A program made the translations under genes and the position numbers. From Naegleria gruberi (taxonomy: Eukaryota), in assembly GCA_000004985.1 (NCBI GenBank), contig GG738906.1: a stretch of 64,000 nucleotides of DNA; one strand, given 5' to 3'. The notes beneath the pieces are model-generated. The model was given only the letters and a program-made list of their open reading frames with translations. It was not told the DNA's origin and did not search any database. Within the stretch, counting starts at the first letter, position 1. Each line of letters starts with the position of its first letter. This document shows positions 2 through 9,877 of this stretch, piece by piece.

Positions 2-3000
2 ATCACACTTGCTTTGAACTTACCTGATGAACACGTTCCTTTGTACAAGTTAATGAGGGCAACTACTGACATTTCATTATTATTTGATCTCTTTGACATT
101 ACCATAGCAACAGATAACAGTCTTTCTGTACAAAATCCAACAATGAATATCAACAGTTCAATTCCAAGGTTGAACACTATGTCAGTAGTTTCAAAAAAGA
201 GTTGGAAAATCAACTCTCAAAGCATTCTTGATAATATTGCTTCTGTAATCCACAATCTAGAGGCTAAATTTGATTCTGTTGAGGATACTGTAAAAGAAAC
301 ATATTATGGACTTTCCCAAACAAACGCAAGTTCATTATGTTCTTTCCTTGACGAAATTATGAAATCAACCAATGACCTTGGAAGGAAATCTGTCCTTCAA
401 ACACCGTTACCATTCGTAAAGAAGACATTTAAACATTTACTTGAAAGGGCTATAGTTGATAAGTTCCAGTCAGCAAAACAAAGCGTTTGCAATGGTATTG
501 TTGAATTTTCTTTGGAAAAGTTTTGCGATTTATTAGAGCATAGATGGGGTCAAAAAGTTTGCTACGATTCTCTAATAGCTGACAAGAGTTTTATTGTAAC
601 CTTAAAGCTTATGAACTATGAGTTAGTTTCGAATGAAGAGCTTTTTGTTGAACCAAATATTTTCGGTACTACCAAAATACCTGCCATAATGGGAATGGAA
701 GATTCTGTTTCACTTAATTCTAATGCAAATTTTGAAATTAGAATTAAGTGTTCTTGGAAAGATGGCTTTGTGTTTGATATCCTTGATGGAACAACATTTT
801 ATATTAGTTCTGACTTTGCTGTAAATGGAAATATGAAAGCTTCTCTAGGGCCTATTAATTTAATGCTTGGAAGTGCAAACGTTTTTGTTGGTAAACCAGC
901 AGTTCTTTCAGCAACACTTGTAAATGGGCTTATTGATCTTTCGCTCACTGGCAATGCTGGTTTCAATTCATTGATATCATTTTTCGATCTATCATCTTGC
1001 CAATTATCAATCGATATACCTGATATAGCCAAATTTTTGGGTGGTAGTTCAAATTCTCTAGTGATAGACCAACATACATGTAAAGGAGGGTCTTTTGTAA
1101 ATTCTGTTACACAAATATTGAAAGACCATACCTTACTAGATTTCTTCAAAGATCCTAGTACTTTCCTTAATCAATTCCAAAATCATTTTTCTGACTTGTT
1201 AAAGAAAATCTTTGATGGACCAAATGGTTTATTGAATAATGTTGTAGTACCAGTTGTGGATAAAGAAATCCAAAAGATATTACAAAAAGAATTAGGGTCA
1301 ATAATTGGCCCAGAAATGACCAATGATTTGACAAATTCTATCACAGTTATGGTAAATAGTGTAATCTCTGGAAAGTCAGTCACTGGAGATGAGCTTACTA
1401 GAGTTATTTTAACAGAATTTACTCAAATAATGTGTCAGAAGTTTAAACCTGTTGAATGTCCAAAAGTACCAGATATCCACAGTGCCGAATATGTTTGGGG
1501 ATTTGAGCTCAAGAGGGTACTGAAACATGGAGTTGCCAATCTTGGTTTTGATATGGGTTCCTCTGCAAAAGGTACTCACTTAACTTCTGAGGTTGAATTA
1601 GATTTTGAAATGGACTATAAACTCAGATTTAATTTGGTATTTTCAAAATCAAATGGTGCTAGTATTACTTTCAATGAAGGTTATGTCTTGGAAGGAATTA
1701 CTGACTTGAAATTGGATGGAACTCAAAAAGTTGAGGGTGAGATTGGTTTTTTAGGAGCAGAAATTATTTTAGATCCTACAAGTTCCTTCCACGCAGAGTT
1801 TGGTGTAGATAATCAGTGGAAAGCATTCATGAAAGCAAACTCAATTTTAACAGGAAAAGCAGAAATGGGATTTGCTGGAATTATTACTAAATTATTGAAA
1901 AATGTTGAAGACCCTCTTGATGCTCTTCCTCATTTTGAATCAATTATTGAATTCAAATGGAATTGGGAAATGGGAACTTCATCATCCACTACTCCTGAAT
2001 TCTCTCTATCAGAACCTAGTTTATGTATTGGTACTCTTTTATCTAGAATGGCAGAAGGGGTAAGAAAACAAGCAGAAAAGGTTATTGGAAATTTAGATAA
2101 GATTGTTGGTCCTGCTTCATTCCTTACAAAGGATGTGGGAGTACTATCTAGAATATTTGGTAGAGAAATGTCTATTGCAGAGCTAGGAATATTTTTGGCT
2201 AGACACTATTGTTCTGGTGAATGTGATGCGGTTAATGTTGAGGAATTAATTAGTGCCTACAAAAAATTGCACATTCTAATGAACAAGCTTCAAGTTGTCC
2301 GTAACTTTTTATCAACAATGAATGGGTGTGGAATTAGAAGAAAATTCAGCAAATTCGTTGTTGATTTGCAAAAATCGGACGATCCCATTATTCATGATGT
2401 TCCTGACCAAGCATTGATTTTTGAACAAGATATTCCTCCAAGTATGAAGCCAGAAATTGAACAAACATTTTCTATGATTCAATCAAGAACTTACAACTTA
2501 CATATTCCTTTATTTGAGGAACCAAAGAAAATACCATCAGCTCTTATTGGCTTAATGCTAGGAAAAGACTTCAATTTAGTTGAAATTGAAATGCCAAAAA
2601 TGGTACTTTCATTTTCAGCTCATTTTGGATTCCCTATTTGGGCATTCCCTTACGTAGAACTTTACATTCAAGCTTCTGCTGGTCTTGTTGTAGATTTACC
2701 AACAATTGCTTATACTACTAAAGGTATACGAGATGCTGTGCAAACAAAGAAAATAACTAATTTATTTAAAGGTGTTGGAATGATCACTAGAAAACCAGAC
2801 GGATCTCCTATTTGGATTGTATCTGGTTATGTTAGATTAACAGGTGGAGTTTCTGTCAGTGTGGTAAGTTGTAATTAATTTGTGCTCTATTTTTTTACTT
2901 ACAATATTTAGTTTATTTTCAGTGGAAATGCATATGCATTCTTGGAAGCAGAGGCAAGAGTTACTGTATTAGATATAAATGGAAATCAAGTGGTTACTTT

Positions 3001-9000: not shown

Positions 9001-9877
9001 GATTGCCTCATTTGTTATTGGATTAGTTTCCTTGGTGTTCAATCCACTATTCTATGACATTGATTTATTCCCATATTGGATCACTTTTAACTGTACATGT
9101 ATTGTATATTCAGTTCTTGTTTGCTTCATTTGGCCTAAAATGATTCCACCAAGAAAATCATCTATTATTAACTCTCTAAATAGTAATACATTAGGTATTA
9201 GAAGAAGCTTAGGTATTGATGGAAACAGAAACAGTCTTAATGCTTCACAAGAAGAATATGAGGAGTCAATTAAGCTTATTAAATCTGACAGACAGAACCA
9301 AGGTTACGAAAATATCTCCAACTCTCTGTTGAAACAACCATTAGTTAGTCATGATGATTATGAGGAATATAATGATTCTGGATATACTAATTTTGTAGAA
9401 ATGGAAAATATGAAAAATGAAAACTACGCCCAACAAGACTATCATCATGCACCAGAATCAGATAAACAAAAATATGAAGAAAGACAAGAAGGAACAGCAA
9501 CAGGTTCTGTTTATTATACCAATGAAGAAGTGAACGAAAATAATAATCAACAAACAGATTATTACGAGGAGAGTTATGATAATTATGAAAATGACCAACC
9601 AAACCTCACTCTTAATCGACAAGTTAATGAACCACAATCATTCCCAATTATTCCACCTCCACCTGCTTATGAAGAACCTACCTATTACACAAACGATGAA
9701 TATCGCTCCACCTCACCAACTAGCAACAATAACAACAGAAGTGATTACAAGTATGACGAAGATGAAGAAGAAACCAATGAAGAACGAAAGTATTACAAGG
9801 AAATGCTCAGAAAAATTATTGTTGAATCTACGGATCCAAGCACATCAATTGAACCTGGTTCCTTCAATCAAGTTTAA
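2..9877 (+). CDS. Giant multi-pass membrane receptor-like protein, 5'-truncated by the window edge (more than 3270 aa in window). Exons <2..2863 and 2912..9877, joined by a 48-nt intron (2864..2911, GTAAGT...TTTAG). Large N-glycan-rich ectodomain, a degenerate GPS-like motif, 7-8 TM helices, then an acidic Tyr/Asn-rich tail.
   Basis: ORF 14..2878 is open to the window start (no in-frame stop at 2..13). GTAAGT at 2864 and the acceptor tttag|ttt at 2911/2912 restore the frame of ORF 2942..9877 (phase 0 on both sides). Intron size matches the others in the window. Hydrophobic segments encoded at about 8260..9130 (LTLVLSSVLFVLFGML, IPHVLLYVVTFFAVCIAIPFVL, VLMVLYKIFQICICLLFLPMF, FVPTLLCYLIVLTLTISF, and others). 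The sequence CTNQFWEDV...REECEED...FSCGLNHDFASL lies just N-terminal of TM1. Confidence 0.5.

Follow-up and report, generated by a model that had tools for sequence, protein, structure and literature searches.

The question raised by the beginning of a 64,000-nucleotide stretch of Naegleria gruberi DNA (contig GG738906.1; this whole stretch is called the window in the following) is whether two very long open reading frames (ORFs), 14..2878 and 2942..9877, belong together, and what kind of protein they encode. Both lie in one and the same reading frame, and a previous sequence-only reading had taken them for a single giant gene (>3270 amino acids) that runs past the 5' edge of the window and codes for a receptor with a degenerate GPS-like motif. 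The gene itself has been confirmed: judged by the identity of the spliced product to an annotated protein, the two ORFs are one gene, NAEGRDRAFT_52947, of which the window contains the 3' 9.9 kb with a single intron (2864..2911) and no other interruption. The best explanation overall, which is considered rather probable, is that this single gene with one intron encodes a multi-pass surface protein of a conserved family that has no known domains. The parts of the gene are as follows:

2..2863, + strand: last 954 codons of exon 1, an open frame; the exon goes on for 1,357 codons upstream of the window
2864..2911, + strand: spliceosomal intron of 48 nucleotides, phase 0, with a GTAAGT donor, a TTTAG acceptor and a candidate CTTAC branch site at 2898..2902
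2912..9877, + strand: exon 2, an open frame of 2,321 codons plus a TAA stop, colinear with the orthologues of N. fowleri, P0006 and P0012

The spliced product within the window comprises 3,275 amino acids and is open at the 5' edge. It shows 100% identity to XP_002671311 (P0001, the product of NAEGRDRAFT_52947; 4,231 amino acids, annotated as 'predicted protein [Naegleria gruberi]'), and the part of exon 1 that lies in the window corresponds, with 100% identity, to residues 1358-2308 of that protein. P0001 adds the 1,357 residues encoded upstream of the window, which begin with a signal peptide (MKQYLLNVALLLLIFCVCVSSSVA), so that the corrected full-length product has about 4,632 amino acids. 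Some 4,060 residues after the signal peptide have no match to any known domain model, and Pfam searches with both exons, with sub-fragments, with the C-termini of 10 family members and with four full-length giants gave nothing relevant, for the four full-length giants nothing above noise.

The protein is not restricted to N. gruberi. In N. fowleri the orthologue (P0002, FDP41_005715) has 4,512 amino acids and 48% identity, and in N. lovaniensis the orthologue (P0003, C9374_011231) has 3,878 amino acids and is C-terminally truncated. Further relatives were found with HMMER, using the last 1,200 residues before the C-terminal tail as a query against 1.84 billion cluster representatives, where relatives of less than 50% identity are listed separately. 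This search returned P0001, P0003 and eight unnamed environmental proteins, and two cluster members, P0012 and P0013, were added. The environmental relatives stem from metagenomes and from raw-read assemblies, and two of them are giants themselves: P0006 (4,868 amino acids, from a G+C-rich organism) and P0012 (4,897 amino acids) are colinear with the Naegleria protein over about 4,300 residues, with E values of 5e-241 and 4e-258. The 212-kb contig of P0012 carries intron-split eukaryotic neighbours, namely genes for a RIO2 kinase, a glycosyl hydrolase 20, a PBD-domain protein and ankyrin repeats. P0004 (1,449 amino acids) and P0005 (1,298 amino acids) have signal peptides of their own and consist only of the membrane-proximal modules and the membrane domain. 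Full-length colinearity, a juxtamembrane Cys module, a conserved loop and a seven-helix block thus unite NAEGRDRAFT_52947, FDP41_005715 and C9374_011231 with their environmental relatives, and by these alignments the product of NAEGRDRAFT_52947 represents Naegleria in a family of conserved orthologues of about 4,500-4,900 amino acids that occurs also in uncultured eukaryotes. A lineage-specific expanded family, as had been suspected, is not what was found, because the library search with the 1,200 residues that precede the tail gave no other Naegleria clusters, and colinear relatives are encoded by environmental eukaryotes other than Naegleria. A word-index homologue search with the family alignment gave no match, and in the literature no paper was found for the three locus tags and the accessions. 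The N. fowleri orthologue is followed downstream by a gene for a 665-residue protein with a weak RGS match and not by the arginyl-tRNA synthetase gene that follows in N. gruberi, and therefore the local gene order differs between the two species.

Most of the protein is ectodomain, in which the following parts can be discerned:

1679..3232, + strand: most conserved core of the ectodomain (residues ~560-1061 of the window protein), interrupted by the intron
4781..4972, + strand: weak partial copy of the ectodomain module (module profile E 0.005)
5018..5140, + strand: two G-x-G-x-D-x-[FI] repeats (GKGDDSF, GEGRDTIF), recognised in the sequence
5930..6817, + strand: copy 1 of the ectodomain module (about 320 residues, with a C…W[FM]…G…C head; module profile 80.5 bits, E 6e-26)
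7034..8002, + strand: copy 2 of the module, next to the membrane (module profile 315 bits, a score that is inflated, as this copy is a row in the seed alignment of the profile)

The core shares 72-82% of its residues with N. fowleri and 24-40% with P0006 and P0012, the distant orthologues, and it holds invariant Cys, Trp and Gly residues. The module was defined by a hidden Markov model built from the ~320 residues before the juxtamembrane Cys module in 10 family members. With this profile, P0006 shows three copies, P0004 and P0005 show two each and the others a single one, and each copy starts with the C…W[FM]…G…C head that is followed by many short predicted strands. The cysteines of the ectodomain sum up to an even number, 50, and there is none in the 242 residues counted in the tail. 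Structure prediction was of low confidence: an AlphaFold2 model of the core (1499..2863, cut at the intron) reached a mean predicted local distance difference test score (pLDDT) of 42, and Foldseek found no match for it below E=0.26. In the same region as the two repeats at 5018..5140, P0012 has dozens of 'MGDGNDxF' repeats of about 16 residues (residues ~3050-3600). Repeats of this type are reminiscent of calcium-binding beta-roll repeats, with no Pfam match.

At the C-terminus, the large presumed extracellular region is followed by a multi-helix membrane block, just as the sequence-only reading had it; the hydrophobic block, expected at about 8260..9130, extends from 8246 to 9139, which is off by a few bases only, and it comprises eight strong hydrophobic segments. 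The membrane domain and the tail are arranged as follows:

8231..8305, + strand: hydrophobic segment 1 (IIYAWYSLTLVLSSVLFVLFGML), by hydropathy; helix 389-413 of the model
8306..8467, + strand: conserved loop of about 55 residues (D-x-G…W-S…R-x-x-I…G-W), by conserved columns, with two short predicted helices
8468-8554, 8573-8641, 8657-8740, 8753-8845, 8870-8944, 8960-9037 and 9059-9130, + strand: seven closely spaced membrane helices, by hydropathy in all members and model helices
9131..9874, + strand: acidic, Tyr/Asn-rich, low-complexity tail of 248 residues, Cys-free and unconserved even in comparison with N. fowleri

In the family as a whole, the successive loops of the seven C-terminal segments carry 3.4, 0.5, 3.2, 0.3 and 2.7 Lys/Arg residues per sequence, and this alternation of Lys/Arg-rich and Lys/Arg-poor loops fits an arrangement with the N-terminus outside and the C-terminus inside. 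The 55-residue loop would therefore be outside, and for the ectodomain to be extracellular as well, segment 1 and the next stretch would have to form a hairpin. Such a hairpin fits the second hydrophobic stretch that is found right after segment 1 in P0006, P0007, P0009 and P0012, and it also fits the paired presence or absence of cysteines: in the eight relatives with an additional Cys in the juxtamembrane module, another Cys follows the G-W of the loop, and in the same alignment N. gruberi and N. fowleri have neither. The loop 8306..8467 is probably extracellular and the tail 9131..9874 probably cytoplasmic. Taken together, a topology appears somewhat probable in which the ectodomain is outside, segment 1 and the next stretch form a hairpin, the loop is outside and in most members possibly linked to the Cys module by a disulfide, the seven helices start outside and end inside, and the tail lies in the cytoplasm. 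The tail of N. gruberi contains a PPxY motif (PPAY, in PPPPAYEEP, within 9653..9679), which may be a candidate site for a WW-domain ubiquitin ligase, and two PPDY motifs are present in the tail of P0012, which is unrelated in other respects.

A membrane domain of this kind could also be a transporter- or channel-like module, as in polycystin-1, that is gated or localised by the giant ectodomain. The eight to nine hydrophobic segments are not a clean seven, the tail has no G-protein-related domain, and there is no similarity to any G-protein-coupled receptor (GPCR) family: Pfam families with seven transmembrane helices gave no match at E<=10 with N. gruberi, N. fowleri and 10 members, and the only GPCR found with the family profile among the PDB sequences was GPR35 at E=1.8. 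However, Pfam gives no PKD_channel, PLAT, REJ or transporter-family match either, there are just 7-9 helices with short loops between them, and conserved charged or polar residues are not prominent within the helices, as seen in the invariant columns, and thus a transporter or channel is unlikely. Like polycystin-1 and the REJ proteins, the giant has more than 4,000 residues, a huge ectodomain, an element rich in Cys next to the membrane and a C-terminus with several membrane passes, and its first hydrophobic segment is set apart from the rest by a loop. Unlike them, it lacks REJ, GPS, PLAT, PKD and PKD_channel (Pfam, four full-length members), it has 8-9 hydrophobic segments instead of 11, and its first loop has only about 55 residues and is probably extracellular, whereas in polycystin-1 it is the cytoplasmic PLAT loop.

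The surface protein with its seven-helix anchor had been taken for a GPS-type receptor on account of a short segment in front of the membrane block, and the neighbouring receptor gene of the same window had been taken for its kin. The two elements concerned are:

8021..8194, + strand: juxtamembrane Cys module, CFLPEIQCTNQFWEDV…REEC…FSC, then a strand-like stretch, defined by the family alignment and previously called GPS-like
36804..41546, - strand: gene of a GPS-type receptor with multiple membrane segments, 1,580 amino acids, with the canonical GPS CHFWNETTEEWSKEGC…YCSCNHTTLFAVL (Pfam GPS 27 bits, cut-off 22.5)

In the family, the Cys module has the consensus C-[LIFV]-x-P-x3-C-x4-W-x-D…(C)…C…C, with invariant C, P, C, C and C. 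The segment that had been likened to a GPS, placed at 8037..8200, does exist, but CTNQFW is found at 8042..8059 and not at 8037, and the spacing attributed to it does not hold: instead of C-x-x-FW the sequence reads C-x3-FW, where a real GPS has C-x-FW, and in the part read as C-x-x-NH-x-FA-x-L (in FSCGLNHDFASL, 8159..8194) one residue separates H from FA, as compared to three in a GPS. Both the second Trp and the C-x-C pair of a GPS are missing from the N. gruberi motif. The H-L-[ST] cleavage triad is absent as well, with N-H-D-F in N. gruberi, Q-S-N-S in N. fowleri and no His at this position in the other members. What reads C-G-L-N-H-D-F-A-S-L in N. gruberi corresponds to C-S-I-Q-S-N-S-T-M-L-T-L in N. 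fowleri and can be recognised in no other member, and because the resemblance to a GPS vanishes already in the closest orthologue, it is not more than chance.

Searches with profiles agree with this. Pfam GPS (PF01825) and GAIN gave no match at E<=1 with the whole N. gruberi protein, and none at E<=10 with the juxtamembrane pieces of N. gruberi, N. fowleri and 10 family members. A GPS profile was also made from the four GPS sequences of solved adhesion GPCRs, recovered from PDB alignments, and compared by hhalign: it gave probabilities of 0.3% with the alignment of the giant family, 0.1% with N. gruberi alone and 0.4% with N. fowleri alone, as compared to 97% (E 1e-10) with the gene 36804..41546, which served as positive control. 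The family members scored with the GPS profile in HMMER gave about 0 bits. Sequence searches of the PDB with the juxtamembrane piece, the C-terminal family profile and a profile of the membrane part only found nothing below E=1.6. The AlphaFold2 model of 7067..9139, based on an alignment of eight sequences, has a pLDDT of 46, a low value that is put down to the shallow alignment, and Foldseek found nothing below E=1.4 in the PDB with it; matches to a beta-helix and to GLP-1R are not meaningful. In this low-confidence model, copy 2 of the module has about 25 short strands and one helix, and such a module of about 320 residues, predicted as nearly all-beta and occurring in tandem copies, would argue against a GAIN domain. 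The GPS/GAIN reading is thus not supported by the sequence comparisons.

Nevertheless, a highly divergent receptor of the adhesion-GPCR or polycystin type with a degenerate, non-cleaving GAIN/GPS region has to be weighed. The module has the location of a GPS, as about 26 residues separate its last Cys (8165..8167) from hydrophobic segment 1 (from 8246), it is rich in Cys, it starts with C-x3-FW-E-D, and an alternating hydrophobic, strand-like stretch follows. According to a passage in PMC11697300, GAIN domains are known for low sequence conservation, and the fold prediction is poor (pLDDT 46). On the other side, none of 10 members has a Pfam GPS or GAIN match even at the relaxed threshold, the family stays far below the positive control in hhalign and at the zero level in HMMER, and the hallmarks of a GPS are absent, while the 'NH..FA.L' string is not conserved even in N. 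fowleri. The module upstream comes in one to three tandem copies and is predicted without a helical subdomain, and there is no match to class B seven-helix models. A disguised receptor of these known types is therefore quite improbable. The likeness to adhesion GPCRs (class B2) is one of architecture, with a signal peptide, an ectodomain that is modular and very large, a juxtamembrane element that contains Cys and a seven-helix bundle at the C-terminal end, with the N-terminus outside and the C-terminus inside (for the giant by its charge pattern), and with a likely role in contact or adhesion sensing. Unlike adhesion GPCRs, the giant has no GPS, GAIN or 7tm_2 profile match and no H-L-[ST] triad, it has an extra hydrophobic segment and the conserved 55-residue loop before the seven helices, and its juxtamembrane consensus is C-x-x-P-x3-C-x4-W-x-D…C…C.

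Only the gene 36804..41546 is of the GPS type, and the idea of two kindred GPS-type receptors in the window is not supported: BLASTP of the giant against this protein found nothing, and a profile-sequence hhalign comparison gave 0.4%. The GPS of the neighbour reads C-x-FW…W…GC…C-S-C-N-H-T-T-L-F-A-V-L, the protein has a weak RGS match (E 0.12), and the top matches of the corresponding segment among PDB sequences, although weak, are the GAIN domains of ADGRG3 and ADGRG1, whereas no GPS or GAIN match was found in the PDB with the corresponding segment of the giant. A word-index homologue search with the C-terminal half of the neighbour, from the GPS to the membrane part, returned nothing, not even the protein itself. 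In Naegleria, seven-helix RGS proteins have been described, some of them with GPS motifs, and in N. fowleri the class numbers 28 members (Bosch et al. 2022, PMC9283941). The gene 36804..41546 appears to belong to it. The giant shares with this class the organism and the combination of a large ectodomain with a multi-helix membrane domain, but it has no Pfam matches to GPS or RGS and no sequence or profile similarity to its neighbour, and as compared to the 28 N. fowleri members there are no other Naegleria clusters for its last 1,200 residues before the tail. With the tempting but unsupported GPS assignment removed, only one of the two large receptors of the window is in the known GPS-bearing class of seven-helix RGS proteins.

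The membrane domain of the giant is missing from its public gene model (XP_002671311 / D2VX55), which by comparison with the orthologues is wrong in three places. In the first, the donor of the true intron was set to a GTCAGT at 2855, 9 nucleotides upstream of 2864, and the residues VSV were dropped. The other two are stretches that were annotated as introns:

7784..7981, + strand: public-model 'intron' of 198 nucleotides (66 residues), GTAAGT…AAG, in frame and stop-free, missing from XP_002671311
8118..9113, + strand: public-model 'intron' of 996 nucleotides (332 residues), GTGAGG…TTCAG, in frame and stop-free, comprising half of the Cys module and the whole membrane domain

Both stretches are taken as coding because they are in frame, free of stops and matched in the unbroken N. 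fowleri ORF. 7784..7981 includes a Trp that is nearly invariant in the family and is very probably coding. 8118..9113 is conserved in N. fowleri and eight relatives, and by this conservation it is coding. If the public annotation were right, the product would be a secreted protein of 4,231 residues without membrane anchor. The model XP_002671311 does exist, and GTGAGG…CAG as well as GTAAGT…AAG are formally usable splice sites, but with the given base composition, chance would leave 332 codons open with a probability of only about 7e-12, N. fowleri, in its intron-less ORF, and eight distant relatives have conserved the helices and the loop encoded here, the real introns of the window measure 40-79 nucleotides, and introns predicted in frame and without stops are known as an artefact of annotation and mostly false (Roy & Penny 2007, PMC1950532). 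It is thus very improbable that the public annotation is right, and an occasional alternative splicing of the two stretches is possible. The corrected model turns the product of NAEGRDRAFT_52947 into a polytopic surface protein, whereas the reference protein lacks the entire membrane domain through the gene-model error and would be missed in receptor screens of Naegleria.

The 48-nucleotide intron, for which a GTAAGT donor, a TTTAG acceptor and a matching phase had been proposed, is well backed by the alignment of the orthologues. GTAAGT at 2864..2869 stands immediately 3' of the complete codon GTG (2861..2863), and the acceptor AG (2910..2911) falls within the in-frame TAG (2909..2911) that bounds the second ORF, and because of these two circumstances the joining of 2863 to 2912 leaves the frame open and is phase 0. 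Two in-frame stops, TAA at 2876..2878 and the said TAG, are inside the intron, and CTTAC at 2898..2902 is a possible branch site. Splicing 2863|2912 yields GGVSVSV|FIFSGN in N. gruberi, and the N. fowleri orthologue reads GGVSVSVFIFKGS across the junction within an uninterrupted ORF of 13,539 nucleotides (locus L001, VFQX01000048.1, 3001..16539); in wider context, …RLTGGVSVSVFIFKGSAYAF… in N. fowleri is opposed to …RLTGGVSVSVFIFSGNAYAF… in the spliced N. gruberi protein. The alignment is free of gaps at the junction in four orthologues (N. fowleri, N. lovaniensis, P0006 and P0012), and the junction sits in the most conserved region of the protein, with 82% identity to N. fowleri. By this alignment the donor at 2864 is a better fit to the orthologues than the public annotation. 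As the N. fowleri orthologue is a single 13.5-kb exon, the intron would be either specific to N. gruberi or lost in N. fowleri. Since five other GTAAGT…YAG introns of 40-79 nucleotides join ORFs in the same window, the structure of intron and ORFs is clearly more than chance, and such short introns seem to be typical of this locus. These five are:

11272..11315, + strand: intron of the arginyl-tRNA synthetase gene, 44 nucleotides, GTAAGT…TATAG, joining ORFs 9894..11306 and 11300..11884
16048..16087 and 18969..19047, + strand: candidate introns, GTAAGT…YAG, within the range of 40-79 nucleotides, linking adjacent ORFs
53858..53904, + strand: candidate intron of 47 nucleotides, GTAAGT…YAG, linking adjacent ORFs
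58621..58570, - strand: candidate intron of 52 nucleotides, GTAAGT…YAG, linking adjacent ORFs

Two separate genes, one ending near 2878 and the next starting near 2942, are scarcely credible, for although there is the stop codon 2876..2878 and an ORF listing gives two ORFs, the orthologues are continuous across the site in their most conserved region, the gap has canonical splice signals, and the downstream ORF has its first in-frame ATG only at about codon 49 and no signal peptide. A non-standard genetic code, with TAA and TAG being read through, was considered as the cause of the two ORFs as well and rejected; TAA terminates 14 of the window's 16 long ORFs, and the ORFs are intact in other respects.

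Several observations weigh against the view of a single-gene, hairpin-anchored surface protein of a family of its own. The evidence for the splice is comparative only, and the fold models are of low confidence (pLDDT 46 and 42, no Foldseek match below E=0.26), so that ectodomain, Cys module and helix bundle have no established fold. A very divergent GAIN-like fold could escape sequence profiles. The co-variation of the cysteines counts as a single evolutionary event, since the two Naegleria species are sisters, and the hydrophobicity of the hairpin is weak in N. gruberi itself. No PPxY motif occurs in the tail of N. fowleri, and the function is read from the architecture.

From this architecture, a non-cleaved surface protein for adhesion or contact sensing can be suggested as the likeliest, if tentative, function. 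The very long ectodomain would bind the surfaces of substrate or prey, strain or binding would be relayed by the Cys module and the loop and so reach the bundle of seven helices and the tail, and the PPxY motif of the tail may direct an ubiquitin-dependent turnover. A general likeness may be seen also to the cysteine repeat modular proteins (CRMPs) of apicomplexans and ciliates, giant surface proteins of protists whose ectodomain contains Cys and whose C-terminus is a multi-pass anchor. In CRMPs, Pfam recognises modules of the EGF and Kringle types, unlike in the giant family, which has no EGF or Kringle matches. It is conceivable, if rather speculative, that the family represents a previously undescribed, ancient class of giant (~4,600 residues) eukaryotic surface receptors with their own juxtamembrane Cys module and a hairpin-plus-seven-helix anchor, which evolved independently of the GAIN/GPS adhesion receptors and is conserved between Heterolobosea and uncultured protists. 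More than 4,000 conserved residues that match no Pfam family have been kept from N. gruberi to the pathogen N. fowleri, at 48% identity, and to distant uncultured eukaryotes, and the family is thus a large unexplored part of protist cell-surface biology. A huge, exposed surface protein that is conserved in Naegleria could matter for adhesion, feeding or host contact.

As to the surroundings of the gene, the window is nuclear DNA of N. gruberi, AT-rich (about 33% G+C) and dense in eukaryotic housekeeping genes, which include those of arginyl-tRNA synthetase, an Mtr4-type helicase, condensin subunit 2, an EF-1alpha-like GTPase and RRN3; tRNA genes were not found in it. Only about 30 nucleotides separate the stop of the giant gene from the ATG of the arginyl-tRNA synthetase (9907). 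Two adjoining genes on the - strand, 59246..62464 and 55273..58254, encode large leucine-rich-repeat proteins, of which one has a RhoGEF domain and the other IQ motifs.

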